DNA of 64,000 nucleotides. It comes from a virus. Its lineage: Duplodnaviria; Caudoviricetes. Each line of letters starts with the position of its first letter. Within the stretch, counting starts at the first letter, position 1. Of the stretch, positions 13,655 through 45,726 are shown piece after piece. A program made the translations under genes and the position numbers. The stretch lies in IMG/VR virus record IMGVR_UViG_3300031996_000004, positions 5,931 through 69,930 of that record. The stretch is one strand, 5' to 3'. Under the pieces are notes generated by a model that saw only the letters and a list, made by a program, of their open reading frames with translations, searched no databases and was not told the DNA's origin.

Positions 13655-14100
13655 CAGGCCACCTGAGCGATCGTCATGGCCGGCAGCCGCGGCACGGTGG
13701 CGCGCACGACGGCCAGCGTCGCGATCCAGAACTCCTGCTGGGTCTCCACGGTGTAGTCGGCCGGCGACGCGCAGCTCCAGGTCTGCTCGAGGTCCCCGAT
13801 GCGCAGCTTGAAGGAGTAGGCCAGCTGGTCGTAGGCATCAGTCAGAGCGCTGACGCGCTCTGACAGCTCGAACGGGCTGGCGCCGCGTACGTAGACCACC
13901 ACGTCCTCGGAGACGCTCTCGCGCACGCTGCGGGTCACGTAGGTGCCCGGCACCCACTCGTTGGCTACCTCGGTCTTGCGGTGGCTGGTCGCCCGCCGCG
14001 CGAAGGAGTCCTTGTGCAGCTCGTAGCCGTTGGCGGCGTCCTCCAGCTCGATCCAGCCAGTAGGGGCCAGCACCGAGGCGGACACGTCCAGGTCAGCCAC
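13654..14100 (-). CDS. Distal tail (Dit)-like protein
   Basis: Immediately downstream of the tape measure gene; 148 aa. Confidence 0.6.
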   Translation of the reverse strand: MADLDVSASVLAPTGWIELEDAANGYELHKDSFARRATSHRKTEVANEWVPGTYVTRSVRESVSEDVVVYVRGASPFELSERVSALTDAYDQLAYSFKLRIGDLEQTWSCASPADYTVETQQEFWIATLAVVRATVPRLPAMTIAQVA

Positions 14101-17100
14101 CGTTCCTCCTCACGCCTCGGGTCTGGGTCAGTCGCTGCCGGGTCGCCTTGGTCTCGAGCTTGCGCCCCATCTCGTCGGGGTCCTGGCTGACCACGGTGAT
14201 CCTCGCATCCCCGAAGTCGTTGCGCTGGTCATAGGTGATCCGCTGGTTGTTGTGCACCGTCATGTGCACCGCCTTGCCCGAGGACAGCGTGCGGCCCTGC
14301 TCGGCAGAGAGCACCGTACCGGCCATCTGCGACAGTTTGGTCACCCCAGCCCACTGCTGGTCGGTGAGCACCTTCTCCGGCTTGCCGGTGGCGTTGTAGA
14401 CCATCTGCAGGCCCGGCGGCAGGTCGCCGCCGGAGTCGTAGCCGGTGGGCTTGATCCGCGGGTCGATCGCGGCCAGCGAGCCGTAGCGCTTGATCGCGTA
14501 GTTGGCGCCGGCGTAGATGTTCGCCTTGGGGTTCCAGATGTCGTCCGGCAGGGTCTTGGAGCGGTAGGCCCGGAAGGTCGGGTCGATGACCTGCATCAGG
14601 CCCTTGGACGGCACGCCGTTCTTGGCGTTGACGTCCCACAGGTTGATCGCCTTGGGGTTGCCGCCGCTCTCGAGGTCGATGCGGCGCAGCACGGCGCCGA
14701 GCTCGCCGGTGGAGCGCCCGAGCATGTGCAGCACCTCGACCACGGTGCCCTGCCACTGCTTGGCGCCGCCCTTGCCGGTGTATGCCGCGGTGCTGCTCCC
14801 GCCGCCGCCGCCGTAGACCTCCTCGAGCTGCTTGGCGACCATGTCCCGCAGCTGGCCGTACCAGCCGCCCTTCTTGGGGTCGATGCTCTTCATCACCGAG
14901 GCGACGTCGAAGCCACCGCCGGCTCCGCCGGCGGAGGACAGGAACTTCTGGACGGCTGCGCCGACCATGTTGCCGCGGTTGGAGATGTCGAAGTGGGCGT
15001 GGTCGTAGTGCCCGGCGCTCTGCCAGATGGTGCGCAGCCCGTACTGCCCGGCCAGCCCGATGATCGCGTTGATCGCGTTCTTCTCGTTCTTGAACGGGGA
15101 GTTGAACGGGTCGGCGTTGACGTCGATCGCCCCACCGCCGCCCGGGCCGCGCTTGTTGTAGTGCTCGCTGCCCGGTGCGTGCACCGGGTGCACGCCGCCG
15201 AACATCGGGTGCTCGGAGACCGCGTAGCCCTTCTTACGCAGCAGCTTGCCGAACTCGATCAGGCCGCCGTCGGCGAAGCCGGCGATGAGCTCCTTGGGGA
15301 TCCGCTTCTTGCGGATCGCCTCCATGGCGTTCACGCCGTAGTGGTTCACCGTGTCGACCGGCTGCATGAACTCCCCGGCGGTGGCCCAGACCGGGATGTT
15401 GTCGGCCTTGGCGTGCGGGGAGAAGCCGTCGATGGTGCCGCCCTCGGCCTTGAGCTGGCCGCCCTTGGTCGACTGGCCGCCGTAGGCGCTGGCCGGCCGG
15501 TCGCTGGCCGTGGGCAGGTCGATGCCCAGCTCACCGGCCACCCGCTTCATCGCGGGGATGACCTCGGTCTGCATCTGGGAGACGAACTTCTTGGTGTCGT
15601 TGGTGACCAGCGACTGGTAGGCGCCGGTCTGGCCGGCCATGGCCTTCATCACTGCCTTGTTGAGGTCGGCCATGGACCCCGAGATGGTCTCGTCGGCGCG
15701 CTTGATGTCCTCGCTCATCCGGTCCAGACCGGTCTGCAGCCCAGCCTGCTGGCGGGCCAGGCTGGTGGCCTGGTCGGTCTCCATGCGGCCCAGGTTGCGG
15801 CTCAGGTCGGCCTCGTTGCGGGCCAGGCTGGTGGCGAAGTCAGTGGCTCCGCGGCGCATCGAGCGCGCGAAGTCGTCGCTCTGGTCACGCAGCGACTTGG
15901 CCAGGTCTGCCCGGGCCCGGCCGAGGTTGGTCCGCAGGTCGGTGGACATGTCGCCCAGCGACTTGGCCAGGTCCTCCTTGGCCCGCTTGAGGTCGGTGTT
16001 GGAGGCGTCGGTGACCAGAGCGCCGGCGTCCTTGCCGCGCTGGGCCGCGATCTTGTTGAGCTGGGCGATCTGGCTGGGGTCGGAGCCGAAGTCGGCGACC
16101 AGGTTGTTCACCTGCTGGGCGTTCTCGGCCTTGCCGAGCTGCAGCTGGTCGATGGCCTGGGCGCTCAGCCCCATCTTGCGCAGCTGGTCCAGCTGGGCCT
16201 TCTGCTTCTCCAGCGCCGCGTTCTGCTCGCGCAGGTTGACCATCAGGTTCTTGGCGTCCCAGGTGGCCTTGGTCTGGATCCGGTCGTAGGGGTCGTACAG
16301 GCTCTTGGCGGCGTCCTCGATCTGGCGCTGGAGCCCGATGTTGAAGTCCCTGATCGCCCGGGCGCGGGTCTTCAGCGCGTCCTGCTCGGCGCGCTCCATG
16401 CTGGTGTTGAAGTCGCGCAGCTGGCGGCCGCGAGCGGTGTTGAAGTCCTCCTCGGCCCGCGAGACCTGCTTGTGGTAGTCCTCCTGGGCCCGGGCCTTGG
16501 ACAGGTTGGCGTCCTGGACGATCCGGGTCTCCTGCTTGGAGAAGTCCTGGGTGGCGTACAGCCGCTGCCGGTCGAAGTCCTGCTGGGCCCGGCTGGCGCT
16601 GATCTCGTACTCGCGCTGGGCCTGCAGCCGGGCCTTGAGCCGCTCGGCGTTGGCCTGGTCCATCCCCAGCAGGTTCTGCTGTGCCTGGCGCTTCTCGGCG
16701 GCCTGGGTGGGGTTCTTGGCGTCCTGGGTGGCCAGCGTGGTCTGGTAGGCGTACTGCTGGGCCATCGCGTCGGCCGGGCTCATGCCGATCTGCTGGCGCG
16801 CCATGGTGAACTCGGCGCGCGCCTGGGCCGCCTTGACGATGGCGAACTCCTGGCTGGCCTCAGACAGGTTGTTGGCCGCCTTGACCGCCTCCCCGCCCAG
16901 CTGAGCCATCGAGGCACCGGTCTGCTGGGCGTGGGTGACCATCGCGCCAGCGGCCTTGTCCAGCGCCTGCACGTTGCCGGGCTGGGCCAGTGAGGAGGCC
17001 ACCGCCTGGTTGGCCGCGCCGCCTCGGCGCGCGTCGAAGAACTGGCTCATCATGGCCGAGACCGGCTCGAGGTTCTTGGAGACCGCGGACTGGATCTCGT

Positions 17101-20100
17101 TGGCCTCGATGTTGCCGCCGGCTGCCTTGCGCTTGGCCTCGAGGTCTTGGTAGCCCTTGGCGTAGTCCTTGTCCTGCTTGGACAGGAACGCCCCGATGTC
17201 GCCGCCGGCCTTGTCGAAGTCGCGGCCGGTCATCTGGTAGCCGCCCTGCTTGCCAGACAGGTCCTGGGTCAGCGAGCGCGCGACCTTGTCGAAGACCTCG
17301 GCGTTGCCGGTCTTCTTGGCCTCCTCGAGCATCGCGTTGGCGCTCTTGATGCGCTCCTGCTGGGCATAGTCGGTGCCGTAGGTGGTGCTCTGGGACAGGA
17401 AGCGCTTGGACTGGGAGTCGACGGCGTTGTCGATCTGCTTCTTGGTGTCGTCGCTCAGGTGGCTGCGGTACAGCGCGCCGCCCGCACTGGTCGAGCCCAA
17501 GATGGCGTCCAGCCACCCTGGCCCCCGGTGGCTGGCGTTGTAGTCGCTCATCGAGTTGCTGTTGAACGGGGCCACCAGCCCGCTCAGGAAGCCGCCGCGC
17601 GGGTCGGCCTTGCCGGCCGCCTGCATGATGTTCCGGAAGTCGCCCTCGGCGGCCCCAACCGGGGCCTGCCCGACTCCGGCAGCGTTGATGCTCGGGCCGA
17701 CCTTGTTGAGCACGTCTTGGACGAACGAGCTGTTGTTGGGGTTCTGGCGCAGCAGGTCGACCTTGACGGCCTGCAGCTCGTCCGGGGTCATCCCGTTTGG
17801 GGCTGTGGCCTTGATCTGGGAGGCCTGCTGCTCGGCGGTGCCCTGGTAGTGGTGCACCACCTTGGACAGGCTGCCCTGGGCCACCGTCAGGTCGTCGGCG
17901 GTGACATTGAGCGCCTGAGTGATGCTGCTGGTGGCCGCGGCGATGTTCTTGCCCAGGGTGTCGGTCATCGAGCCGTGCGTGATGGCCGGGCCGGTCGCCT
18001 TGCCGATGGAGTCGCGGTAGGCGTCCAGCGTCTCGGAGATGTTGCGGTTGGCCAGCTCGTCCGCGGTGTCCTTGCGGCTCTGCGAGCTGTTGCGCGCGGC
18101 CATGCCGAGCCCGAGGATGCCCATCACTCCAAGGCCGGCTGCTCCGCCCACAGAGGACAGCAGCGCGCCTCCGGCGCGCATCCCGACATTGGCCACGTCG
18201 CCAGCGGCCCGCATGCCCATGGCGCCCATCCCGAGCGGGACCTGGGCGGCGCTGAGTGCCAGCCGGCGGAACATCGAGGCGCCGTCGCCGGCGGCCAGCA
18301 GGCGCTTCTGCAGCGACTCCGCAGCGCTGCCCACGCCCTTGAAGCCGAGCGGGTCGCCAGTCTTGGGCAGGTTCAGCCCGCCGACCGGGCCCCTGGCGAA
18401 CTGGGCGGCAGCGAACTGGTTGCCCTGGCGGAAGAGGGCCGCCTGGGCCTGCGCGGTGGCGCTGGCCCCCGGCAGGCTGGACATCGGGTTGGCGTACCTG
18501 GCGCTCCAGATGCCGCGCAGCTCGTTGCCAAAGCCGCGCCACGGGGTGGCAATGGTGCCCGCCCCGACCTGCCTCCGCAGGCTCGGGTCGTTCTGGGCGC
18601 CGTTGAACAGCGACCCGGAGATCATCCGCAGGTTCATGTCGGCCAGCGAGGCCACACCGCCCCTGGCCATCCGCAGACGGTCACCCAGGGAGTAGGTCCC
18701 GGTGCCCGGGGCGGCCGGACCCATCCCGTTGCCCAGCCCACGGCCGTACTGCAGGAAGCGGGCCCCGATGGTGCCCAGCCGGCCCTCATCGGCGGCGTTC
18801 TGCGAGGGTGCGCCGAACCGGCGCAAGAAGGAGCCCTGCCCCAGGCCGCGGCCCTGGGAGTAGCCCGCGGCCAGTGCGCGCAGCGGGGTGGAGGTCAGCG
18901 CCTGCCGGGTCAGCCCCAGCGCGCTCAGCGGCCCCAGCAGGGCCCGTGCGCCCATGATCCCGATGCCGCCGTAGGCCAGCGCGCTCAAGGCGCCCTGAGC
19001 CGGCTTGGAGCTCACTACGCTGCCCAGCAGGCTGGTGGTCTTGCCCAGCAGGTCGGTGAATGCGGTCAGTGGACGCAGCAGCGGGGCGCCGAACGCCTCG
19101 GCCAGCTGCTGGCTGCTCGAGGTGAGCTTGTTGACCGAGTCGTTGAGCCCGCCGAACGCGGCCTCTGCGGCCTTCTGGGTGCTGCCCGAGCCGAAGCCCT
19201 CGGCAGCCTGTGCCACGGTCGTGCGGATGCCGCCTTGTGCCGCCAGCGCGGTCAGGTAGCGGCTGGTGCGAGGGCCGTCCAGGCCGAGCATCTCCAGCTG
19301 ACGCGGCGCGGCCTGCGGGTTCTTGGCCAGCGCCTCGGTGACCTGGGTCAGCGCCTCGGTCGGGTTGTTCTTGAAGAGCTTCTCGAACTCGTCGCTGGTC
19401 TTGCCGACGATCTGGGCGTAGGCAGCCATCTCCGGGGTGCCGTCGCGCACCGAGCGGGACATGTCCGAGAGCATCTTGTTGACTGCGGTGGAGGCCCCGA
19501 CGCCGTCCTCGCCCATCTTGGCGAAGGCGCTGGAGATGCCCAGGATGCCGGTGGCCCCGATCCCGGCCGCCTGGGCCATCGGGGCGATGTTCTTGGAGAA
19601 GGCCAGCACGTTGGTCGCGCTGGCCCCGCTCTTGGCGCTGACTGTGGTCAGCGCGTCCCCGAGCCGCTCGAAGCGCTTGGGGTCCAGGTTGGTGTTCCCG
19701 CTGGCGCGGGCGAGCTCGACCATGCCAGAGGTCAGTCCGCCCAGGCCCTCGCCGGTGGCCCCGGAGAGCTGGACCACCGACTTGCTCAGCTTCAGGACCC
19801 GGGCCTCGCTGCCCTCGGTGGCCACGCCCATCTTGGTGATCTGCTCGACGGTCTGGCGCGCGGCCGCGTTGCCGATCGGGAAGTCCCGGGCGAGCTGGCG
19901 CATGCCGTTGGCCAGCCGGGTGGTGTTGGCGTGGGTGACGGTCGCCTGGGCGGCGACCCCGGACAGCGCCTGTTGGGTGTTGGCAGCCGAGGCGGCCATG
20001 CCGCCCCAGGCCAGCAGGGTGGCCCGCTTGGGGGTGACTGCGTCGATGGCCCGCTGGACCATCGTGGTCTGCGCGGTCAGCCCGCCGAAGGACTGCTGCA

Positions 20101-20188
20101 GCTGACTGTTCGCCCCGGTGATCTGCTGGGCCCCGGCGAGGTAGGTCGAGGGGTCCATCCCGAGGTCGATCGTGATGTCGTCAGCCAC
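14093..20188 (-). CDS. Tape measure protein with C-terminal peptidoglycan hydrolase domains
   Basis: 2031 aa, Ala-rich helical. N-terminal TP901-type TMP region; coiled-coil repeats; SLT motif (ESGGNPKAINLWD...GLMQVIDPTF...ANIYAGANYAIKRYG). Confidence 0.95.
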   Translation of the reverse strand: MADDITIDLGMDPSTYLAGAQQITGANSQLQQSFGGLTAQTTMVQRAIDAVTPKRATLLAWGGMAASAANTQQALSGVAAQATVTHANTTRLANGMRQLARDFPIGNAAARQTVEQITKMGVATEGSEARVLKLSKSVVQLSGATGEGLGGLTSGMVELARASGNTNLDPKRFERLGDALTTVSAKSGASATNVLAFSKNIAPMAQAAGIGATGILGISSAFAKMGEDGVGASTAVNKMLSDMSRSVRDGTPEMAAYAQIVGKTSDEFEKLFKNNPTEALTQVTEALAKNPQAAPRQLEMLGLDGPRTSRYLTALAAQGGIRTTVAQAAEGFGSGSTQKAAEAAFGGLNDSVNKLTSSSQQLAEAFGAPLLRPLTAFTDLLGKTTSLLGSVVSSKPAQGALSALAYGGIGIMGARALLGPLSALGLTRQALTSTPLRALAAGYSQGRGLGQGSFLRRFGAPSQNAADEGRLGTIGARFLQYGRGLGNGMGPAAPGTGTYSLGDRLRMARGGVASLADMNLRMISGSLFNGAQNDPSLRRQVGAGTIATPWRGFGNELRGIWSARYANPMSSLPGASATAQAQAALFRQGNQFAAAQFARGPVGGLNLPKTGDPLGFKGVGSAAESLQKRLLAAGDGASMFRRLALSAAQVPLGMGAMGMRAAGDVANVGMRAGGALLSSVGGAAGLGVMGILGLGMAARNSSQSRKDTADELANRNISETLDAYRDSIGKATGPAITHGSMTDTLGKNIAAATSSITQALNVTADDLTVAQGSLSKVVHHYQGTAEQQASQIKATAPNGMTPDELQAVKVDLLRQNPNNSSFVQDVLNKVGPSINAAGVGQAPVGAAEGDFRNIMQAAGKADPRGGFLSGLVAPFNSNSMSDYNASHRGPGWLDAILGSTSAGGALYRSHLSDDTKKQIDNAVDSQSKRFLSQSTTYGTDYAQQERIKSANAMLEEAKKTGNAEVFDKVARSLTQDLSGKQGGYQMTGRDFDKAGGDIGAFLSKQDKDYAKGYQDLEAKRKAAGGNIEANEIQSAVSKNLEPVSAMMSQFFDARRGGAANQAVASSLAQPGNVQALDKAAGAMVTHAQQTGASMAQLGGEAVKAANNLSEASQEFAIVKAAQARAEFTMARQQIGMSPADAMAQQYAYQTTLATQDAKNPTQAAEKRQAQQNLLGMDQANAERLKARLQAQREYEISASRAQQDFDRQRLYATQDFSKQETRIVQDANLSKARAQEDYHKQVSRAEEDFNTARGRQLRDFNTSMERAEQDALKTRARAIRDFNIGLQRQIEDAAKSLYDPYDRIQTKATWDAKNLMVNLREQNAALEKQKAQLDQLRKMGLSAQAIDQLQLGKAENAQQVNNLVADFGSDPSQIAQLNKIAAQRGKDAGALVTDASNTDLKRAKEDLAKSLGDMSTDLRTNLGRARADLAKSLRDQSDDFARSMRRGATDFATSLARNEADLSRNLGRMETDQATSLARQQAGLQTGLDRMSEDIKRADETISGSMADLNKAVMKAMAGQTGAYQSLVTNDTKKFVSQMQTEVIPAMKRVAGELGIDLPTASDRPASAYGGQSTKGGQLKAEGGTIDGFSPHAKADNIPVWATAGEFMQPVDTVNHYGVNAMEAIRKKRIPKELIAGFADGGLIEFGKLLRKKGYAVSEHPMFGGVHPVHAPGSEHYNKRGPGGGGAIDVNADPFNSPFKNEKNAINAIIGLAGQYGLRTIWQSAGHYDHAHFDISNRGNMVGAAVQKFLSSAGGAGGGFDVASVMKSIDPKKGGWYGQLRDMVAKQLEEVYGGGGGSSTAAYTGKGGAKQWQGTVVEVLHMLGRSTGELGAVLRRIDLESGGNPKAINLWDVNAKNGVPSKGLMQVIDPTFRAYRSKTLPDDIWNPKANIYAGANYAIKRYGSLAAIDPRIKPTGYDSGGDLPPGLQMVYNATGKPEKVLTDQQWAGVTKLSQMAGTVLSAEQGRTLSSGKAVHMTVHNNQRITYDQRNDFGDARITVVSQDPDEMGRKLETKATRQRLTQTRGVRRNGG

Positions 20189-23712: not shown

Positions 23713-23945
23713 CAGAGGCTCTTGCGCATCTTGGGGTTGATGTAGCTCGCCTGCGGCGTGCTCACCTTGCCCTTGGTGCGGTTCATTCTGGCGTTGGGGC
23801 GCAGGATGCCTCGCGCCACCAGCGCCGACAGGTGGCGGGTCGCCTTGGCGACCGCGTTGGGCACAGCATCGCCGGGCTGGTAGGTGGTCCCGTTCTGGAG
23901 CTTGACCTTCCTACCAGCCACGAACGACGCAGGCTTGCGGATCAT
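23712..23945 (-). CDS. Small basic protein downstream of the capsid gene
   Basis: Start MIRKPASF at 23945 overlaps the MCP stop; 77 aa. Confidence 0.6.
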   Translation of the reverse strand: MIRKPASFVAGRKVKLQNGTTYQPGDAVPNAVAKATRHLSALVARGILRPNARMNRTKGKVSTPQASYINPKMRKSL

Positions 23946-24943
23946 CAGGCGACCGCGGAGCCGACCCAAAGGCCCATGTCCGGGGACACGACCTTCATGT
24001 CGTAGGTCTGCTCGGCCTCGACGCGGTCGGAGGTGATGTGCTCCATGCGGAACTTCTTCACCTTGACGCCCTCGGAGTTGCCGCCGAGGTAGCCGGTCCA
24101 CGTGAACGTGTAGCCGGCCGAGGGGGTGAGCAGCGACGGGGACGACGGCGCGTAGGCGAACAGCACGCCCTTGGGGTCACCGATGAAGTCGTAGGTCGCG
24201 GCAGCGTCCTGGCTGCGCGCGTCCGTGGTCTCCGGGCCGGTGGCCTTGGTGGCGTAGGTGACGAAGAGCTCGTCGACGTCGAACAGCGTCGCGATGAGGT
24301 CCTCGGTCACCACACCACGCTGGGTGTACTTGATCCGGTCGATGATGTCCGGGTGGTGCTTGAGCGCCTTCATGACGTAGGCGCCCATCACGCAGACGTT
24401 CGGGGCGAACCCGGTGAGCTGGCGGAAGTCGATCATCCAGCCAGCCACGTCCTGGAGCGGGTCGGAGCCAGCGTTGTCCCACTGGAGGAACTGGTTGGCC
24501 GTGGGGCCGGTGGCCACCCCGGTCTTCTCCGTCGCCCAGACGCCCGCCTTGAAGTAGGCGTTCGTCCAGTCGATGTCCCGCTTGAGCAGGTGCTGGTTGG
24601 TCACGAACTCCGTGGCGTCGCGGTCCAGGTTGAAGTTGGAGTCCGCGTTGGCCCGCACCTGGTCGTCGATGTCCTTGTGGACGCCGTAGACGTGGCAGAA
24701 GTACTGGTCGGTGTCCTGCTTCCAGCCGACACCCGGGGTCTCGGTGGAGGGGGCCCGACGCTGCACGTCAGTGCGGCGCCAGTCGGACTTGGAGTACTTC
24801 CAGTACAGGTCGGACTGCTTGGAGACCTTGACCTTCGGGAAGACCTTGTCGGCGATGTAGGAGTCCGCCGACTGCATGTAGGCGATGCTGACATTCGTCA
24901 GTGGCACATTGACGTGCAGGTCAGCCTGAGAGGGGCTGGGCAT
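23945..24943 (-). CDS. Major capsid protein (HK97 fold, lambda gpE-like family)
   Basis: LTNVSIAY...IADKVFPKVKV...WDNAGSDPLQD...PNVCVMG...YAPSSPSLLTPSAGYTFTW; RBS gaaagga. Confidence 0.9.
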   Translation of the reverse strand: MPSPSQADLHVNVPLTNVSIAYMQSADSYIADKVFPKVKVSKQSDLYWKYSKSDWRRTDVQRRAPSTETPGVGWKQDTDQYFCHVYGVHKDIDDQVRANADSNFNLDRDATEFVTNQHLLKRDIDWTNAYFKAGVWATEKTGVATGPTANQFLQWDNAGSDPLQDVAGWMIDFRQLTGFAPNVCVMGAYVMKALKHHPDIIDRIKYTQRGVVTEDLIATLFDVDELFVTYATKATGPETTDARSQDAAATYDFIGDPKGVLFAYAPSSPSLLTPSAGYTFTWTGYLGGNSEGVKVKKFRMEHITSDRVEAEQTYDMKVVSPDMGLWVGSAVA

Positions 24944-25383: not shown

Positions 25384-26508
25384 TCAGCGACGACGCTGCT
25401 CGGCCTCGTACTCGTCGTACGCGGCGGGATTGGCCTCGAACAGAGCCGTGACGGCCTGCTCCTGGGAAAGGGCGCCGGCGGACTTGCCGACCGCCTCACC
25501 GGCGATCGCGTAGACCTGCGCGACGATGTCGGACTCGATGCCGCCGTTGTAGCCGATCTCGTCCATGGCGTACTTGGCGATCTCGCCGTAGCCGGAGAAG
25601 ACGCGGTCCAGAGCGGCGACGTCCTCGGCCGGGAGCACCTGGGAGGCGCGGTAGAGCAGGCCACCGACCTCCTCGGGGTCACCCAGCTCGTAGCCCTTGG
25701 CCAGCTCGGTGAACTCGCCAGCCTCCTGCGCCTCGACGAGGCCAAGGACCATGTCCTCGAGCTCCTCGTTGCGCTTGGCCACGGACTCGAAGTGGTCGAG
25801 TGCCTTGGCGATCACCTCGTCGCGGGCGTCCTCGGTCAGCGCCTTGGACAGGTCCTCGAGCACCGACTCACCCAGCGACTTGCCGAAGCGGTTGTCGGCG
25901 TAGGCGCCGCCACCGGCGCCAGCCGCAGCGGCGCCGCCGTAGCGGATGCCCTTGCGGCCGCCCTCGGGGATGGCGCGGTACTGCATGCCAGCAGCCGTGG
26001 CGCTGTTGCGGGCGCGACGGCCGGCGCGGTTGAGGCGCTCGCGGCCCTCGCGACCGTAGGCGCCTGCCTCCTCACGAGCGTTGCGCACGGCGCCGCGGGC
26101 CTGGATGCCGGCGCGCAGAGCGCGAGAGCGAGCCGCGCCCATGCGCTCGCCGGGCAGGTACCGGCTGGATGCGCCGCTGACCTCGCGGGCGACCGTGGTG
26201 TGCCGAACGGCGCGACGCGCGAGCTGGTCGCGCAGGCCCTTCTCGACACCCTCGTCGTCGTCCTCGAAGTCCTCGCCGTCCTCGGCGTCTCCCTCGACGA
26301 AGACGAGCTCAGTGCCGTCCTCGCCGTAGACGACGTCACCGTGCTCCAGCTCGGCCTCGTCGACCTCGTTCCCCTGAGCATCGAAAATGCTCATTCCGTC
26401 CTCCTGACGTTTTGCGATTGCGACCAAGCCGTGCTGGTTCGCAGGGCGGTCCACGAGGGAGACCTCGTCGATCTCGAGGCCCGAGAGCTTCTTCACCATG
26501 CGCGCCAT
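25384..26508 (-). CDS. Scaffolding protein with internal Arg-rich insert
   Basis: Start MARMVKKL at 26508 (RBS gagg). N-terminal LEIDEVSLVDRPANQHG is typical of XkdF-associated head proteins; acidic helical C-terminus (...AVTALFEANPAAYDEY). Confidence 0.75.
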   Translation of the reverse strand: MARMVKKLSGLEIDEVSLVDRPANQHGLVAIAKRQEDGMSIFDAQGNEVDEAELEHGDVVYGEDGTELVFVEGDAEDGEDFEDDDEGVEKGLRDQLARRAVRHTTVAREVSGASSRYLPGERMGAARSRALRAGIQARGAVRNAREEAGAYGREGRERLNRAGRRARNSATAAGMQYRAIPEGGRKGIRYGGAAAAGAGGGAYADNRFGKSLGESVLEDLSKALTEDARDEVIAKALDHFESVAKRNEELEDMVLGLVEAQEAGEFTELAKGYELGDPEEVGGLLYRASQVLPAEDVAALDRVFSGYGEIAKYAMDEIGYNGGIESDIVAQVYAIAGEAVGKSAGALSQEQAVTALFEANPAAYDEYEAEQRRR

Positions 26509-26569
26509 AGCGTCCTCAGTTTGGATGCTGGTCTGTCTTGTTGGTTGGTACTGCCCCGCGACACGCCGG

Positions 26570-27286
26570 TCAGAGCTTACGCCCGGACCGAGCACCGTCG
26601 GGGATGTTGCTGTTGCGCATCTTGCCGCGGGCGACCCGGACACGCAGCGGGGTCTTGGGAGCCACCGGAACGCGCTTGGGCGCAGCCATTCCGGCGATCA
26701 GGCCGAGGCCACGCTGGACCCCGGTGGCACCGGTCTCGGAGAAGGCCGCAGCCTTGCCGAACGGACCGGAGCGCTGGCCCTTGGGGGTGTGCCGGTAGAC
26801 CTCGAGCTTGGTGGCGTTGCGGCCACCGCCCGAGCCATGGCGCACGTGCGTCAGGGCGTTGCCGTGGCCGACGTGGCCACCGGTGGGGACCAGGGCGCGA
26901 ATCCGGGTGGCGCCGGGCACCGGCAGGGCGACCTTGTAGGCCTTGCCGAACGCCACGACCTCCTCGAAGGGGTTGACCAGGTTCTTCGACATGGCGTTCT
27001 TCCTCTGGTGGTTGCGGTGGATCAGGTAGCCAGTGGTGCCGGCGGCCGCTGCCGCGCCCGCTCCGATGGCGACGTTTCGGCCCAGATGGCGTGCTGTCGG
27101 CTTGGCGACGACCTCGCGAAAGGTCTCACGCGTGGCTGCTGAAGGGCCAGCCGAAGGACGAGTAGCCGGACGAGCAGCTGGTGCCGAGTGGCGCGCTTGC
27201 ATGTCCTCGAGGGAGCCGAAGTCGCGCTGGCTCCTGGGGACGAAGCCACCAGCCGGGCGCGGCTTGCGCCGCTTGCTCTGGGCCAT
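26570..27286 (-). CDS. Basic head-module protein of K-delimited peptide modules
   Basis: 238 aa Arg/Lys-rich; GAGAAAAAGTTGYL helix; AMSK, AFGK and PFGK motifs. Confidence 0.7.
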   Translation of the reverse strand: MAQSKRRKPRPAGGFVPRSQRDFGSLEDMQARHSAPAARPATRPSAGPSAATRETFREVVAKPTARHLGRNVAIGAGAAAAAGTTGYLIHRNHQRKNAMSKNLVNPFEEVVAFGKAYKVALPVPGATRIRALVPTGGHVGHGNALTHVRHGSGGGRNATKLEVYRHTPKGQRSGPFGKAAAFSETGATGVQRGLGLIAGMAAPKRVPVAPKTPLRVRVARGKMRNSNIPDGARSGRKL

Positions 27287-28635: not shown

Positions 28636-29817
28636 TCAGTAGCCCATCAGCGAGTCGAGGTCATGGTCCTTGCGCATCCCCTTGCCGTGGATGCTGAACC
28701 CGGTGCGGCCGCCCTTCTTGACCTCGGCCCAGGTGTCGTCGTCGTGGATCTTGAAGCCGACCCACCAACCGCGCGGGAAGTCGTGCGGCAGGCCCATCTT
28801 GGCGATCTTGTCGTCGGTGAAGACGATCGACTCGACCAGGTCGGAGACCTTGTGCGGCGCCTCACCGGCGCGACGGTGCATGTCGCCGCCGACGCGGCTC
28901 TTGTGCACGTAGTCGTAGGCGGCCTTCTCGATGTCGTCGGTGGTGATGTAGTCGCCCTGCCGGTCGATCACCGGGGAGCCATTGAGCTCGGTGACGCTGG
29001 CCCAACCGAAGGCCAGGCGCTGGTCGTCGTCGAGCTTGGAGAACTCCCCGGTCCAGGTCACGTCGACGGTGCCGTCGGCTTTGCCGTAGTAGGCGTCCTC
29101 GAGCGCGGCGCTCTTGGCGTTGCGGCGCGCGGTGTTGGCGCGCCCGACTGCTCCTGCGCCGACTGCGCCAGCGGCCAGTCCAGTGCGTCCCTCGGCCGTC
29201 GTCAGCACCCGGCCTGTGAGCTGTCCGGCGCGCTCTGCGCGGCTCTTGGGCTTGGCAGCCCGGACCACCTCGCCAGGCACGACATCGTGGCTGGCTGGCA
29301 CCAGTTCGCCCATCTGCTTGACGTGGCCGGCGACAACCTTGCCCAGCGCAGGAGTGCTGACCTTGCCGACCTTCTCCTTCTTGCGAGCGAAGGCCTGCCG
29401 GCCAGTGACCGCACTGGAGTTGATGTCACCGGCGACGTTGAGCCCCTGACCTGCGGCAATGAGCCCGGCAGCCACCTTTGCCTTGGTCGGGATGAGCTTG
29501 CCGCCGCCGACCTTGCTGCGGGCGGCCCGGATAGCGTCCTTGGTGGCCAGTACGCCCATGGTGCCGCCAAAGGCATTGGAGGCGAAGGCGGCCTGCGCCT
29601 GGCGGCGCTGTCCGCTGGCGTGCACGTCTGCCTGGTCGGGCCCGGCCTTGATGACCTCGTCCCACACCTCGTCGGCGTCGATCAGGTCGCCGTACAGGGT
29701 CTTGCAGAGCGCGACGAACTCCGGCGTCGCGCCATGACGGGCGATGGCGGAGGGCGAGGCAGTCACGTCAGACATCATCGCGGGTGGGCTCCCATCTAGT
29801 CGGCCAGACACGCTCAC
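28636..29817 (-). CDS. Prohead maturation protease, XkdF-like (S78-type serine peptidase), with long N-terminal extension
   Basis: C-terminal domain DQRLAFGWASV...DRQGDYI..DDIEKAAY...GDMH...LVES...GWWVGFKIHDDDTWAEVKKGGRTGFSIHG. GTGA overlap start at 29817 (alternative ATG at 29778). Confidence 0.85.
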   Translation of the reverse strand: MSVSGRLDGSPPAMMSDVTASPSAIARHGATPEFVALCKTLYGDLIDADEVWDEVIKAGPDQADVHASGQRRQAQAAFASNAFGGTMGVLATKDAIRAARSKVGGGKLIPTKAKVAAGLIAAGQGLNVAGDINSSAVTGRQAFARKKEKVGKVSTPALGKVVAGHVKQMGELVPASHDVVPGEVVRAAKPKSRAERAGQLTGRVLTTAEGRTGLAAGAVGAGAVGRANTARRNAKSAALEDAYYGKADGTVDVTWTGEFSKLDDDQRLAFGWASVTELNGSPVIDRQGDYITTDDIEKAAYDYVHKSRVGGDMHRRAGEAPHKVSDLVESIVFTDDKIAKMGLPHDFPRGWWVGFKIHDDDTWAEVKKGGRTGFSIHGKGMRKDHDLDSLMGY

Positions 29818-38776: not shown

Positions 38777-39057
38777 GTGGGGTTCCTCTCGAGGTTGTAG
38801 GCCAGCGTGCGCACCACCGCGCTGGCCGGCTGCCTGGTGGCGGCCGCGTGGTGCTCGAGCATGGCGGTGAACCAGCTCGCGGACGCGCTGAACAGCACCG
38901 CCCAGGCGTCAGCCGGGCTCTGGTGCTTCTGCGCGGCGTCGGCCATGTAGCAGTTGAGCAGCAGTGCGGCGTCGCTCTCGTTGCCGCCGATCTTGGCCGT
39001 CGCGATGCCCAGCACGGTGCGGGTGGCGTCAGGCAGTAGCGCCTCGGCGGCGTTCAT
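38773..39057 (-). CDS. Hypothetical protein downstream of the portal gene
   Basis: MNAAEALLPD... start at 39057, ATGA overlap with the portal stop; 94 aa. Confidence 0.6.
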   Translation of the reverse strand: MNAAEALLPDATRTVLGIATAKIGGNESDAALLLNCYMADAAQKHQSPADAWAVLFSASASWFTAMLEHHAAATRQPASAVVRTLAYNLERNPT

Positions 39058-40751
39058 CGTCGCTGGCCACCTTGGCTGCCGCCCTGCTGCTGGCCACCGC
39101 CCTGCTGCTGGCCACCGCCCTGCTGCTGGCCGATGGCCTGGAACATCTGCTGGGCCTGGTTGAGCTGGTGGTCGCTGTCTGCGCGCTGCTCCTGGGCCTG
39201 GCCGAACTGCATCTGCTGCTGGCCCTGCTGCATCTGCTGCTGCTGCTGGGCGTACTCCAGAGTGGGCTTGCCGGCGGCGAGCTGCTGCTCGGCCGCCATG
39301 GCCTGGGCCAGCTGGGAGCGCGCGGCCAGGTAGCGGGTCTGGGTCTCGGCGAACCGGGCTGCCTCGTCCAGCCGGGCCAGCCGGCGGTTGGCCGCCTGCG
39401 CGTCCTCGCCGAGCTCGGGCAGCCCCGCGGCGTGGCGCAGGTAGCGCTCCATCTCGGTGTCCGGGCCCCAGTTGAAGCCCAGCCCCGCGGTGGCGGTCAG
39501 GAACTGGGACAGCTGGGTGAGGTCGGGGGCGTCGACGTTGCCCGGCTGAAGGGTCGGCAGCGTGGACGGCTTCCAGCCGTTGGCCGCGAACAGCCGCGGG
39601 ATGGCGTGCCGGTTGAACACCTCGGCGATGGACAGCGCCACCGCGTTCAGCGCGTCCCGGAAGATGCCGGTCTTGTCGACGTGCAGGTTGTAGGTGCCGG
39701 TGGAGCCCTGGTGGCCGACCATGATGAAGTCGGCCAGCACGGTCATCAGCTGGCGCTGCTCGTAGCGCTGGATCAGCTCGTTGGTGGAGAACTGCCGCTG
39801 CCCGCCGGAGCCCATCAGCTCGAACTTGAACATCGGCTGCTTGGTGTCCGGGTCGTAGGCGGTTGGGAAGACCAGCCCCTCCTGCTCGTTGCGCCGGATG
39901 GAGCGGACCATCTTCTTCATGGCCTCGACCATCTTGGCCTGGTCGGTGCCCTTGCCGGCGCGCAGGTACTCGCTCGGCACGCTGACCATGGGCAGACCGG
40001 CCAGGTCGCGCTCGACGCCCACGCTCTCGAACTCCTCGAGGCGCTTCTTGTAGTACCAGGGCCGGTAGGAGTTGCGCAGCAGCGAGCGCCCCTCGGGGTT
40101 GCCCTTGTGGTGGCCGAAGCGGAACAGCAGCGAGCGGTCGATCGGGATGGTGCGGGTCTTGTAGTCCGGCGGGGAGAGCTGGACCATGGCGCGCACGTCG
40201 CCGGTGTCGTCGAAGACCCAGCGCTGCAGGGTCTCCTGAGCGCGGATCGGCATCTTGCGCCAGCCGATCAGGCCGTCGCTGTGCTTGGAGCGGTGCCTGC
40301 CATCGCGCTGCCAGGGGCCCATCCGGCGCTTGTAGACGATCTCGTGCCAGGACCAGCCGTACTGCAGACAGGACAGGATCTCCATGATCGTGTCGTCCCA
40401 CGAGCTGCTCATGTCGTCCATTGACGTCTCGACCAGCTTGGCCGCGTTGGCGTCGTCGCGGCTCTTGCCGCCGGGCACCACCGGCCAGTCGATGCCGCGC
40501 AGCAACTGGGTGAAGGTGAACAGCAGCGCCCCGGTGATCGGGTCGTTGTCGCCCATCTCGCGGAAGACCTGGACGCCCTTGCGCCCCTTGAGCTGGGGCA
40601 GGAACTCCTCGTCGAGGTAGCCGGCCGAGCGCTTGAGGCCGGTGACGCCGATCTCGTCCATCCACAGCGGACCACTGGTCAGCTGCTGGACCTCGGCTAC
40701 GGCGTCCCGGTCAGCCGCCTCGGTGGGGCTGGGGTACCTGGTTCCGGCCAC
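39054..40751 (-). CDS. Portal protein (Mu gp29/DUF935-like)
   Basis: EIGVTGLK...YGWSWHEIVYKR...HHKGNPEGRSLLRNSYRPWYYKKRLEEFESVGVERDLAGLP...AEVFNRHAIPRL. Confidence 0.9.
   Translation of the reverse strand: MAGTRYPSPTEAADRDAVAEVQQLTSGPLWMDEIGVTGLKRSAGYLDEEFLPQLKGRKGVQVFREMGDNDPITGALLFTFTQLLRGIDWPVVPGGKSRDDANAAKLVETSMDDMSSSWDDTIMEILSCLQYGWSWHEIVYKRRMGPWQRDGRHRSKHSDGLIGWRKMPIRAQETLQRWVFDDTGDVRAMVQLSPPDYKTRTIPIDRSLLFRFGHHKGNPEGRSLLRNSYRPWYYKKRLEEFESVGVERDLAGLPMVSVPSEYLRAGKGTDQAKMVEAMKKMVRSIRRNEQEGLVFPTAYDPDTKQPMFKFELMGSGGQRQFSTNELIQRYEQRQLMTVLADFIMVGHQGSTGTYNLHVDKTGIFRDALNAVALSIAEVFNRHAIPRLFAANGWKPSTLPTLQPGNVDAPDLTQLSQFLTATAGLGFNWGPDTEMERYLRHAAGLPELGEDAQAANRRLARLDEAARFAETQTRYLAARSQLAQAMAAEQQLAAGKPTLEYAQQQQQMQQGQQQMQFGQAQEQRADSDHQLNQAQQMFQAIGQQQGGGQQQGGGQQQGGSQGGQRR
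39081..39131 (-). repeat. 18-bp tandem repeat encoding QQQGGG in the portal C-terminus
   Basis: gccctgctgctggccacc x2 plus a partial copy. Confidence 0.8.
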
Positions 40752-40920: not shown

Positions 40921-41223
40921 TCAGAGTGCTGGTCCACCGACCGGCTCCGCTGGCTCGGGCTGGGGCGTGGGCGGCAGCGGAGTGGGGATCACCGAGCCGT
41001 CGATCTTGCGCCGCATCACGTAGGAGACCACGGTCTGGACCACGGTCTTGGCCAGTGAGAAGCCGACAACGGCCCACTGGATGTCGCCCCAGCCGCCGGC
41101 AGTGGCGAACACGGTGACCAGCACCGTGCCGACGGCGACGGCCAGGTCGATTGCCAGCCCCTGGATGAAGGTGCGCAGCGCTCGGTTCTTGGCATCCGCG
41201 GTGAGCAGATCGGTGCTGGTCAT
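40921..41223 (-). CDS. Holin
   Basis: RALRTFIQG...two TM segments...SLAKT; directly downstream of the endolysin. Confidence 0.8.
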   Translation of the reverse strand: MTSTDLLTADAKNRALRTFIQGLAIDLAVAVGTVLVTVFATAGGWGDIQWAVVGFSLAKTVVQTVVSYVMRRKIDGSVIPTPLPPTPQPEPAEPVGGPAL

Positions 41224-42071
41224 GGCTTTCCGTTCAGGTAGCGCTGCAGGAGGGTGATGGTGATCGGTCCGGGGATGCCGTCCGGCTTGGCGCCGACCTT
41301 GAGCTGGATGCCGGCCCAGGTCTTGGGGCCAAGCACGCCATCGGGCTTAGCCCCGACCCAGCGCTGGATGGTGGTGACCGTGACCGGACCCCAGATGCCA
41401 TCCACAACGACCCGCAGGAACTGCTGGGTGCGACTACGGGTGGCCCGGCCGAAGATGCCGTCGACCTTGAGCCAGATCTTGGTTGGCACCTTCTTGACCG
41501 GCGGCAGCACCACCACGGGCGGCTTGTAGCCGACCAGCCGGTTGGCCTGGGCCACCATGTCGGCCAGCGGGTAGTAGGGGCCGGGGTCGGTGTGCCCACC
41601 GACCGGGCCGAAGACCCGGGTCGCCTGGGCATGGGTGATCACCCCGGCGTAGCTGCGCGAGAGCAGCTGGGCGTCGGTCATCGTGCGCAGCGGGATCTGG
41701 TAGGCCTGGTTCCACTCGGCGCACACCGTCGCGGTGTTGGCGATGGTGGCCTGGGAGAACGGGTCGGACCAGTCCGCGGCGCTCTGGGAGGCCCGGCCGG
41801 CCTGCTCGACGTGCAGCCCGTCGGCGTTGACGTACGGTGCGCCCCAGGCGGTGTCCGCGTCGTCGACGTAGGTGCAGATCGAGTCGGCGTCGGTGCCCTT
41901 GTGCGCGCTGCCGCCGGCAGCCGGGTTCTGGAACCAATAGCCCATCCCCTCGGCCGCGGTGGGCAGCTCCTGGGTCTCACCGTCGTGCACGACGATGTAC
42001 CGGATCACCCCGGCGATGCGCCCGGCGTGGTAGTTCTTCGGGCTAGCGGGGATCGAGGTTCTGGTGGTCAT
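41220..42071 (-). CDS. Endolysin: N-acetylmuramoyl-L-alanine amidase (Amidase_2) plus peptidoglycan-binding repeats
   Basis: YIVVHDGE...GSAH...AWGAP..N..GLHVEQAG...THAQ...GGHTDPG; four C-terminal DGxxGxxT repeats; start MTTRTS at 42071. Confidence 0.9.
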   Translation of the reverse strand: MTTRTSIPASPKNYHAGRIAGVIRYIVVHDGETQELPTAAEGMGYWFQNPAAGGSAHKGTDADSICTYVDDADTAWGAPYVNADGLHVEQAGRASQSAADWSDPFSQATIANTATVCAEWNQAYQIPLRTMTDAQLLSRSYAGVITHAQATRVFGPVGGHTDPGPYYPLADMVAQANRLVGYKPPVVVLPPVKKVPTKIWLKVDGIFGRATRSRTQQFLRVVVDGIWGPVTVTTIQRWVGAKPDGVLGPKTWAGIQLKVGAKPDGIPGPITITLLQRYLNGKP

Positions 42072-42462
42072 GGGTGCCCTCCGCGGCAAGTTCGTGGTCT
42101 GAGGATGCGACCCGCAGGTGCCGTACGTCGGCAGGCTCGCCGGTGGTGGCCAGGGTCTTGATCCAGCGGATCGCCCGGATGAAGACAATCGTGTCGAACA
42201 GGATCGTAGTGAAGATCCGGGCTGTGGCCACCCCGTTGTCGTGCGGAGACTGGATGCCGACCCGGAAGATGTTCCAGCTCGAGAGCAGGTACAGCAGGCA
42301 GATGCCGATCGGCAGAGCGGCGAAGTCGACCAGCTCGAACCAGGTGAAGGCTGCGCCCCGACGGCGCCGGGCCTTGACGGCCGATGGAGTCCAGGTGAAG
42401 ACGTAGAAGACCGACGCCAGTGTCCCCAGCAGTGTCAGCGAGGCGATGGTCATCTCATACAC
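42043..42462 (-). CDS. Membrane protein in the lysis cassette
   Basis: About three hydrophobic segments; 139 aa. Confidence 0.55.
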   Translation of the reverse strand: MYEMTIASLTLLGTLASVFYVFTWTPSAVKARRRRGAAFTWFELVDFAALPIGICLLYLLSSWNIFRVGIQSPHDNGVATARIFTTILFDTIVFIRAIRWIKTLATTGEPADVRHLRVASSDHELAAEGTHDHQNLDPR

Positions 42463-43379: not shown

Positions 43380-44045
43380 TCAGACTGCCGTGGCTGGCGT
43401 CAGTGACAAAGTGGCGTTGACCAGCGAGAAGTCGCCCGAGCCGCCGGCCGCGGCGGCCCACTGCAGCGAGATGACGTTGCTGGCGCCGGGGAAGGCGTAG
43501 ATGCCTGCGCAGCCCCACTCCCAGATGCTCGAGAGGCCGCCGGGGGCCCGGGACCAGCCGGCGTTGGACGCGGTGGCCTGCTGGGGGTAGATCGCCGTGG
43601 TCCCCTGCAGGATCCGAAAGCCCATCCCGACATCGCCGTCATGGGCCACCTGGGCGCCCACCAGGTAGGCGCCTGTGGCTGGCACCGTGATGCTCAGGTC
43701 TGCCACGGTGGCCCAGACGTCGCTGCGTGAGACCGTGGTCGGCCCCAGCGCCTTGCGGATCAGCGGGCCGGCGGTGCTGATGTGTCCGGGCACCCAGTCG
43801 GTGCCGTCCCAGATCAGGGCGTCACCGGGCTGCACTCCTGAGACGTGCACATCGCCCAGCTGGCCCAGCAGCGTGTCGCCGAGCGCGGACTGCAGGTCCT
43901 CGGTGGTCACGTCGGCCGGGGAGATGATGCCGTTGTCCAGGAACTGCAGCAGCTGGCGGCGCGACCAGGTGCTGGTGTCCACGGTGGCGCCCTGGATGTA
44001 GGCCCGGCCGTAGATGGTGGTGTCCAGGCTTGCCATGAACCTCAT
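43380..44045 (-). CDS. Putative virion fibre-like structural protein
   Basis: Start MRFMASLD at 44045 overlaps the terminase stop. LGQLGDVHVSGVQPGDALIWDGTDWVP fibre-type motif plus a beta-rich C-domain. Confidence 0.6.
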   Translation of the reverse strand: MRFMASLDTTIYGRAYIQGATVDTSTWSRRQLLQFLDNGIISPADVTTEDLQSALGDTLLGQLGDVHVSGVQPGDALIWDGTDWVPGHISTAGPLIRKALGPTTVSRSDVWATVADLSITVPATGAYLVGAQVAHDGDVGMGFRILQGTTAIYPQQATASNAGWSRAPGGLSSIWEWGCAGIYAFPGASNVISLQWAAAAGGSGDFSLVNATLSLTPATAV

Positions 44046-45631
44046 ACGCTCATCGCCTCCCATGGGTCGGCGCCACCGGTGCCGGTGGGCACCAGCAGGC
44101 CGGAGTCGGTGAAGCCGTAGCGCTCGTCGACGATGGTGACCCCACCGATGGTCTGGAAGGTCCCGTCGTCGGGCTTGACGTGGAACGGGGCGTCCACCGC
44201 GCGCACGGTGTCCTGGCGCGGGATGGTGCCGTCGTGGCGGGTCGGGGCCGGCAGCTTCTTGATCGCCCGGTGCGCCAGCGCCATGGCGGCCAGGTCGTCG
44301 GGCAGGTGGGTGTTCCACTTCCCGGGGGCGTAGATGTCGGCCACCGTGGCGGACCGGTGCGCGCGGTAGAGCGGGTTGACCGCCACGGCCGGGTGCTCGA
44401 GGTTCTTCTCGATCAGCGGCAGCCGGTACTTGCCGTGCTCGAAGTCGGTGATGTAGTCCAGCAGCATCTGGGTGCGGGCCCGGCCGACCATGACGAACTT
44501 GTTGGTGGTGTCGGAGAAGTCGACGAAGTCGTTGACCACGTTGCCGACGCCGGTGCCATCGTGCTCGGCCACCGCCTGGTAGGCCTGGGTGTCCTTGTTG
44601 AACAGGCTGATCATGTAGTCCCAGGGCCGGCGGTTGATCCGGGTGAGCTTGACCATCCGGTGTGGCTCGACGTCGTAGCGCATCACCGCGATGACGGTCT
44701 TGTCCTGCTCCTTGGCCCAGTCTGCGCCGACCGCGTACAGCCCGTTGGCGACCGGGTCCTCCCAGACGTAGACGTCGTGGTCGCCGTTGCCCTTGTGCTC
44801 CTCGCGGATGGTCGGCTCGTAGGCCACGAAGTACTCCTCGACCTTGTCCAGGTCGAAGGCGCGGGAGCCGGCGGCCGGCTCGTTCAGGTCGTACTCGGTG
44901 TGCCACATCTGCGCCGAGACGGTCTGGCGCTTGTTGTCGATGAAGCGCTGGCTCATCCAGCCGTGCGGCTGCAGCAGCTCGCGCCAGCACCAGGTGAAGA
45001 CGGGTAGCCCGCGCTCACGCGCGGTCTCGATGACCTGGGTGAAGGTGCCCTCGGGGTTCTGCCAGGTGCTCGAGGCCACGATGTACTCGTTGATGACCTC
45101 GCCGTGGGCGTTCAGCTGCTCCATCGCCTGGCCGAGCGAGGCGTTGTAGATGTCCCACTCCATCTCATCGACCTCGTCGAGGAGCTGCAGCGGCGGGTGC
45201 GGGCCACGGACCGTGGTCTGGGAGGCCGGCAGCGGCTTGATCGCCTTGCCGGTGGCCATCTGGATCAGGGTGGCCTGGTCCTTGGCCATCGCGTAGGTCG
45301 GGGCGTTGGGGTGGGCCATCAGCTTGCGCATGTGCTCGCGGACGTTCAGCGACTGGGTCATCGAGCCGCCCAGGATGGTCACGTCGATGTCGCGCACGAA
45401 CGCCTTGACCAGCCCGAGCACGGCCAGCGCCAGCGACTTGCCGCTACCTCGAGAGGCGTACCAGACCGCGTAGTTCGGCTCCTTGCCGAAGAAGGCGTGG
45501 CTGACCGCCTCGAAGGGGGACACGTGGTCGGCGCAGACCTTCTGCCGCGGCAGCTTGATGCCGAACATGGCGTTGATGACCCACCACAATTCCTCCTCTG
45601 TCCTCGGAGGACGAGGAAGCACAAAGGTCAT
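44042..45631 (-). CDS. terL: Terminase large subunit
   Basis: Walker A ASRGSGKS, Walker B LQLLDEVDE, motif III SSTW, nuclease VGADWAKEQD...HLPDDLAAMALA; start MTFVLPRP at 45631. Confidence 0.9.
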   Translation of the reverse strand: MTFVLPRPPRTEEELWWVINAMFGIKLPRQKVCADHVSPFEAVSHAFFGKEPNYAVWYASRGSGKSLALAVLGLVKAFVRDIDVTILGGSMTQSLNVREHMRKLMAHPNAPTYAMAKDQATLIQMATGKAIKPLPASQTTVRGPHPPLQLLDEVDEMEWDIYNASLGQAMEQLNAHGEVINEYIVASSTWQNPEGTFTQVIETARERGLPVFTWCWRELLQPHGWMSQRFIDNKRQTVSAQMWHTEYDLNEPAAGSRAFDLDKVEEYFVAYEPTIREEHKGNGDHDVYVWEDPVANGLYAVGADWAKEQDKTVIAVMRYDVEPHRMVKLTRINRRPWDYMISLFNKDTQAYQAVAEHDGTGVGNVVNDFVDFSDTTNKFVMVGRARTQMLLDYITDFEHGKYRLPLIEKNLEHPAVAVNPLYRAHRSATVADIYAPGKWNTHLPDDLAAMALAHRAIKKLPAPTRHDGTIPRQDTVRAVDAPFHVKPDDGTFQTIGGVTIVDERYGFTDSGLLVPTGTGGADPWEAMSV

Positions 45632-45726
45632 CGGGACTCCAGATAGGCGATCGCGGCTCTCAGCCTGTCCCGCGACGGACGCTCGTCGTCGTTCTGCGGG
45701 GCCCTTGGCAAGACGAAGGTCATGGG

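Follow-up and report, generated by a model that had tools for sequence, protein, structure and literature searches.

The open frame of 393 codons on the minus strand at 28636-29817 of the window (the whole stretch of 64,000 nucleotides analysed here) is assigned to a prohead protease that occupies the C-terminal third of the protein and follows a long N-terminal extension. We suggest that the protease cuts itself free from this extension after two conserved lysines, K246 and K57. We consider this the best-supported reading of the locus and a plausible one, with a probability of roughly 55%, because lysines bracket the protease and because the same short lysine motif holds 32 of the 59 lysines of the putative scaffold and its orthologues. 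The parts of the precursor are the following.

28636-29817, minus strand: whole ORF, the prohead protease precursor (from the ORF list, the database gene call and the start-site context).
29647-29760, minus strand: acidic N-domain, residues ~20-57, with three short helices (AlphaFold model, pI).
29647-29649, minus strand: K57, candidate site 1 (conservation in homologues).
29362-29646, minus strand: basic Gly/Ala-rich module 1, residues 58-152, which ends in KVGK152 (composition).
29080-29361, minus strand: basic Gly/Ala-rich module 2, residues 153-246, which ends in YYGK246 (composition).
29080-29082, minus strand: K246 (codon AAA), candidate site 2, ahead of the protease (conservation, linker position).
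28648-29076, minus strand: protease domain of XkdF type and gp21/assemblin fold, residues 248-390 (PF14550 and structural match).
29035-29037, minus strand: K261 of EFSK, inside beta-strand 1 of the protease fold.
28639-28677, minus strand: C-terminal tail, residues 381-393, with the family consensus RKDxxLDELMGY (conserved in homologues).

All residue numbers follow the 393-residue version, which opens with GTG 29817 in the ORF list. This GTG shares bases with the TGA (GTGA) of the upstream 961-aa gene. The true start is probably ATG 29781 or the next ATG, 29778, giving 381 or 380 aa. A GGGAG lies 10 nt ahead of the ATG, the homologues start at the corresponding MM position (the ATG-ATG 29781/29778 of the minus strand), and the gene called in the database has 380 aa.

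The assignment of the C-terminal domain to a prohead (capsid-maturation) protease is secure, as judged from profile matches and the predicted fold. An HMM search for the domain limits gave a match of Peptidase_S78_2/XkdF (PF14550) to residues 258-381 only (E 4.7e-20, 72.3 bits against a cut-off of 24), which covers profile positions 4-123 of 126; in the whole-genome search the protease scored 74.9 bits. Several PHROG families of head maturation proteases match the same C-terminal stretch. A sequence profile search of solved structures with the precursor returned no match. In the AlphaFold model, built on 92 homologues, the C-terminal domain is confidently modelled, with strand 1 at 251-263 (pLDDT ~95). 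By far the best structural match of residues 248-390 is T4 gp21 (5jbl_A, Z 9.9, rmsd 2.9 A over 118 residues; Foldseek probability 0.99), followed by the VZV and HCMV proteases with Z of 4-5. H314 and S375 are invariant among the 92 full-length homologues. From this invariance and from the spacing, which fits that of the gp21 pair that we take to be His85/Ser140, His314 (28876-28878) and Ser375 (28693-28695) are probably the catalytic pair. In the C-terminal tail R382 is invariant and D388 is found in at least 90% of the homologues; the tail ends at the position where longer variants have a further lysine site, and it possibly has a capsid- or scaffold-binding role.

The sequence-only reading had placed the XkdF domain in the last ~130 aa, beginning right after EFSK. 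The domain does lie in the C-terminal third alone; the proposed start is wrong, because K261 falls inside strand 1 of the protease. The gp21 match spans 248-390, the Pfam match already starts at 258, and 10 of the 92 homologues have E or D in place of K261. The I/F-S-K-x-D-D motif at the equivalent of K261 is also found in XkdF proteins of related contigs that are devoid of the N-terminal extension. Hence, the alignments and the model point to K261 as a general XkdF feature, and neither a boundary nor a likely cleavage site. The model instead places the protease junction at YYGK246, in the disordered linker 238-247 (pLDDT <50) just ahead of strand 251-263.

The precursor belongs to a large family. 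More than 500 metagenomic proteins match it, and the 92 full-length homologues align along the whole length with 39-67% identity. Their common plan consists of the acidic three-helix N-domain, K57, the basic Gly/Ala middle, K246 and the XkdF domain. The middle region between the two lysines varies from 40 to 374 residues (median 222), and short homologues of 227-290 aa keep both ends with one module or none. Lysine is found in 91/92 homologues at K57, with V at P3 in 87/92 and P at P3' in 84/92, and again in 91/92 at K246. With the candidate cut after K, the family logos read [DE][DE]-V-x-K / [AMRL]-[SGA]-P-D-Q for K57 (100 homologues) and Y-[GA]-K / [SRA]-D for K246, so that P2 and the primed side are not the same in the two candidate sites. 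We suggest that the conservation of K57 and K246 despite a spacing of 40-374 residues supports them as processing sites, as does the position of K246, a short conserved motif in a predicted disordered linker exactly at the domain boundary. Six variants are extended at the C terminus (498-792 aa), and all six carry a hydrophobic-x-K motif followed by A/S, located 9-17 residues past the serine motif S-[IV]-H-G. Therefore, the family has lysines on both sides of the protease.

Four relatives (P0168, P0175, P0176 and P0182) have a conserved module of ~70 residues (R-P-x-x-P-Y-x-Y-R ... D-R-V-R-L-F) after the protease and the lysine site, which we take to resemble a KTSC-type domain. In BFVD the XkdF proteins range from 134 to 892 aa, and some of them are named for Zeta-toxin or ChaB domains.

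The source of the window is a 69.9-kb IMG/VR virus contig with an estimated completeness of 89%. The GC content of the window is 64-73%, and the source is best explained as an uncultured siphovirus of ~70 kb from a high-GC, Actinobacteria-type metagenome. The genes of the head module and its surroundings, on the minus strand, are listed below in the order of the module.

44042-46168, minus strand: putative terminase, an ORF of 708 aa (assigned by position; no Pfam match).
41220-42188, minus strand: lysin with Amidase_2 and peptidoglycan-binding domains, between the putative terminase and portal genes.
39054-40751, minus strand: Portal_Mu portal (family match).
After the portal, minus strand: nine genes listed with no family matches, the target ORF among them.
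25384-26511, minus strand: putative scaffold gene, acidic, four genes downstream of the protease.
After the nine genes and ahead of the capsid gene, minus strand: decoration protein gene.
23945-24943, minus strand: lambda-E-like major capsid protein, next in order (phrog_1005, E 4e-87).
14093-20188, minus strand: tape measure of 2031 aa with a C-terminal SLT transglycosylase domain, among the tail genes after the capsid.

The protease gene thus lies in the head module, between the Portal_Mu portal and the scaffold, decoration and lambda-E-like capsid genes, and the gene order and similar gene sizes are kept in related contigs of 66-77 kb. The place of the lysin gene between the putative terminase and the portal is odd for a lysis gene. 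At the DNA level the region shows no resemblance to the phage collection except for a 42-bp stretch of the capsid gene in two Arthrobacter phages. No record of that collection spans more than 36% of the precursor protein, and a search of it returned no cultured relative with this N-terminal extension.

We counted the lysines of the window that lie in the motif phi-[GSA]-K, where phi is F, Y, V, I, L or M. In the head module 41 of 198 lysines (21%) fall in this motif versus 51 of 508 elsewhere (10%; Fisher p 3e-4); with the tape measure left aside, the count elsewhere is 32/404 (8%; Fisher p 1.5e-5). R is the commoner residue, and the head module alone shows a preference for K over R at the motif position (odds ratio 2.7, p 5e-5). 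The stricter pattern [FY][GS]K[AS] occurs 7 times in the 4.4 kaa of the head module versus 2 times in the 14.8 kaa elsewhere. The scaffold must leave the head, therefore protease sites are expected in it. The motif holds 8 of its 12 lysines and 7/19, 9/13 and 8/15 of those in orthologues, and five of the six lysines that are invariant in five orthologues lie in the motif. The AlphaFold model of the scaffold has a mean pLDDT of 49 from 5 sequences, with residues 213-374 helical. From these counts, one short lysine motif appears to recur at head-protein junctions and to be kept in orthologues, as in motif-directed prohead processing. The motif is also found inside the folded protease, at the nearly invariant IAK340, and 19 of the 104 lysines of the tape measure are in hydrophobic-[GSA]-K; hence, a motif match alone does not define a site.

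Three further observations concern these proteins. The motif lysines of the tape measure either come from the periodicity of its helices or mark sites at which this protein is processed. A basic ORF of 238 aa at 26570-27286 (minus strand) has a V/F-G-K-A-Y motif, with the candidate cut after K, kept in 4/4 phages (orthologues L006, L007 and L008), and outside this motif the length of the orthologues varies from 113 to 238 aa. Inside the scaffold gene, the stretch 25879-26238 (minus strand) encodes a basic, Gly/Arg-rich cassette flanked by VEK and RFGK sites. The VEK is invariant in 5 orthologues and the RFGK in the four that have the cassette; the scaffold orthologue L005 is devoid of it, so the cassette behaves as an insertable module.

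The acidic N-domain bears on the most probable of the alternatives. Its helices span residues 22-27, 32-42 and 48-58 (pLDDT 85-95, pI 4.3), and across the family the domain is ~45 residues long. With a profile of the N-domain alone, 1.84 billion representative proteins yielded only 100 clusters, nearly all full-length ones with XkdF and the short ones fragments; a search for N-domain proteins that stand alone found none. Because of this distribution we consider the N-domain to be a private partner of this XkdF subfamily, as far as sequence profiles tell. It might be that no cleavage at specific lysines takes place in the extension and that the N-domain with the basic segments is a permanent tether or a regulatory pro-region, which anchors the protease to the scaffold, the portal, DNA or a membrane, or else keeps it inactive. 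The conserved lysines would then be contact residues, and the protein would either remain in the head or undergo non-specific degradation at a later stage. The occurrence of the N-domain with XkdF only is what is expected of a partner of the protease domain. K57 closes a high-pLDDT helix and P60, D61 and D64 downstream of it are conserved as well, so the conservation around this helix end would suit a binding surface no less than a cleavage site. The lack of motif enrichment in the middle region goes in the same direction. However, a short conserved motif within a disordered linker, such as that of K246, is what a processing site typically looks like, the lysine motif recurs past the protease in all C-terminally extended variants, and the same motif dominates the scaffold, the very protein that has to be removed from the head. 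We thus regard a permanent tether or pro-region as unlikely.

The middle segments agree in part with how they had been described in the sequence-only reading. The lysines lie where it had put them (K57, K152, K246 and K261), and the segments between the N-domain and the protease are indeed basic and Gly/Ala-rich, with a pI of 11.1 and 37% G+A in module 1 (58-152) and 10.4 and 34% in module 2 (153-246). The division of the middle at KVGK fares worse. Only 9% of the middle-region lysines of 100 homologues lie in the motif, which equals the background, so the case for KVGK152 comes from a 25-sequence alignment with V-x-K in the majority; the site does not resolve in the 92-sequence alignment, and we keep it as a weak candidate for cleavage. 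The likeness of the modules to the neighbouring small ORFs holds for composition (flanking ORFs have a pI of 11.3-12.0 and 26-32% G+A, versus 10.4-11.1 and 34-37% in the middle segments). Homology with them was dropped, because BLAST of 58-152 and 153-246 against the neighbouring ORFs gave nothing significant, the best hit (E 0.047) being to the basic cassette of the scaffold. Residues 1-57 and 58-246 match no Pfam family, even at E 10, and a protein atlas search with residues 14-246 gave no usable match. The moderately hydrophobic Gly/Ala helices of module 1, 76-92 and 113-129, have Kyte-Doolittle peaks of 1.04 and 1.13; the hydrophobic peaks of the middle segments (1.0-1.1 over 17 residues) are lower than in a typical membrane helix, and residues 103-152 have pLDDT <50.

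These properties bear on a second alternative, namely that the basic middle serves inside the head as a filler similar to a core or scaffold, with a role in assembly or in DNA condensation, rather than as delivered cargo. The segments would be cut up and then expelled or kept as a counter-ion of the DNA, similarly to a protease-scaffold fusion in reversed order. The pI of the middle segments would suit this role, as would the free variation of module length and number among homologues and the presence of a similar basic cassette between two invariant lysine sites of the scaffold, missing from one orthologue. On the other hand, the scaffold has its own separate gene, and hydrophobic Gly/Ala helices are atypical of DNA-binding or scaffold proteins. 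The observations do not set such a filler apart from delivered cargo, and we find it rather improbable.

That the long ORF is an artefact, either of two genes fused through an error in sequencing or assembly or of a protease that is made alone from an internal start, finds an argument in the unusual domain order and in nothing else, and is dismissed as extremely improbable, as 92 full-length homologues from independent samples share one open frame and the internal start for a protease-only product was rejected, there being no start codon with a ribosome-binding site near residue 247.

As for self-release after lysine, the profile match and the fold establish the identity of the protease domain, and beyond this we infer the following sequence of events. 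In the first step the precursor, composed of the N-domain, two basic segments, the linker and XkdF, would join the procapsid together with the scaffold. The active protease would then cleave after the K at P1 of a motif whose P3 is hydrophobic and whose P2 is small or variable. The self-cut at K246 would yield a free protease of 147 residues and that at K57 would remove the N-domain, while the same protease would cleave the scaffold and neighbouring head-module proteins at like sites. In the last step the basic middle segments would become free peptides within the head. From there they might leave the head, remain with the DNA or be delivered to the host. The sequence-only reading had called the modules cargo, which we consider a guess from their composition; its description of the protein as a head-module protease with a long N-terminal extension is borne out by the comparison of homologues.

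The scaffold has one more feature that may connect it with the protease. Its first 34 residues weakly match Peptidase_S78 positions 127-160 of 165 (E 0.099), which correspond to the C-terminal strands of HK97-type proteases. The motif is nearly invariant in five orthologues. A similar one opens the scaffold genes right after stand-alone XkdF genes in four unrelated phages (Roseobacter CRP-6, a human-gut phage contig, Rhizobium RHph_Y1_11 and Roseobacter RDJL Phi 2), and in one related contig it heads a separate ORF of 119 aa. The loci are the following.

26410-26511 of the window, minus strand: scaffold N-terminus with the motif E-I-D-E-V-S-L-V-D-R-P-A-N-Q-H, ending in IAK (weak Peptidase_S78 match).
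L009:2914-3729, L010:3059-4300, L011:4096-5208, L012:3886-4995 and L004:12762-13121: the other scaffold-start motif loci.

Near XkdF genes the motif takes the general form L-x-I-x-E-[IV]-S-x-V-x-x-[PG]-A-[NQ], with a lysine at the end. We suggest that the N-terminal strand of the scaffold may be a point where it meets, docks on or complements the protease, or else a relic of an ancestral protease-scaffold fusion. A joint reading of all these features would be that, in this clade of actinophages, the XkdF lysine code (hydrophobic-small-K) defines a set of capsid-loaded basic glycine-zipper peptides, the modules of the protease itself included, which are set free within the head and, during infection, act at the host envelope; the N-domain would be a removable pro-region, and the S78-like strand of the scaffold would dock on or complete the protease, making it active only in the procapsid. 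Taken as a whole, this reading is speculative and has the odds well against it.

Proteases that free themselves from a longer assembly protein at a release site are familiar from herpesvirus UL26, lambda C/Nu3, Mu I/Z and P2 gpO. The precursor described here is similar to these protease-scaffold fusions in that the protease is part of a longer protein, with self-release predicted. However, unlike in the fusions, the extension comes first and the protease last, and the scaffold is separate, four genes away. It also differs from the nested pairs lambda C/Nu3 and Mu I/Z, as the protease is C-terminal and there is no internal start with a ribosome-binding site around the junction.

T4 gp21 cuts at the motif L/I-x-E. 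Together with phiKZ gp175 and SPN3US gp245, it shares the fold of our protease (gp21 Z 9.9), and these enzymes recognise a short P3-P1 motif both in themselves and in many head proteins. With Lys as the candidate P1, our protease would differ from them, as their P1 is Glu. SPN3US gp245 has A-x-E as its motif, at which it cleaves ejection proteins as well as itself, and it loses a C-terminal piece of 64 residues (PMC10052503). By analogy, gp245 is the closest experimental counterpart of the motif-directed head proteome suggested here. Unlike in gp245, the propeptide is N-terminal and has ~250 residues, and the phage is a 70-kb siphovirus rather than a giant myovirus.

Iyer, Burroughs, Anand, de Souza and Aravind (2017; PMC5512222) described polyvalent proteins and polyproteins of phages that carry an assemblin-like peptidase as their C-terminal part. 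As in these proteins, the protease is the last domain (248-390 of 393) of a longer head-module protein, for which self-processing in the capsid is presumed, and a portal is present, with the terminase recognised by position only. The class is marked by several enzymatic or effector domains, whereas none is recognisable in the N-terminal part here; instead, there are an acidic mini-domain and basic Gly/Ala-rich segments with lysine-bounded junctions. In the literature we found no report on XkdF specificity, substrates or lysine cleavage, the ICP1 paper gives no cleavage sites, and nothing was found on a non-enzymatic extension, a private N-domain or a candidate Lys specificity.

Among uncultured phages, prohead proteases of the XkdF family are common. 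If our suggestion is true, the lysine motif is a rule by which the substrates of head processing in such phages can be predicted, and a head protease can bring non-enzymatic peptide modules into the capsid. This bears on the loading of internal proteins by actinophages and on the use of such junctions for loading foreign proteins into capsids.

Last, the stand-alone XkdF proteins of PBSX (XkdF), Roseobacter CRP-6 and RDJL Phi 2 and Rhizobium RHph_Y1_11 have the same domain with 31-45% identity, and their genes likewise lie between the portal/MuF and scaffold/capsid genes, with a scaffold that opens with the S78-like motif; they differ in being 132-229 aa long and devoid of the N-domain and basic modules. 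Two proteins with an XkdF match, L011:3480-4118 (MN988558.1) and L012:3486-3884 (NC_041958.1), are annotated as “DNA methyltransferase/prohead protease” or “DNA methyltransferase”. Methylase fusions, suggested by this phrog_1530 “DNA methyltransferase” label, were rejected, the labelled proteins having only 212 and 132 aa. By size and XkdF match both appear to be bare XkdF proteases, and hence the label seems to be a propagated misannotation.
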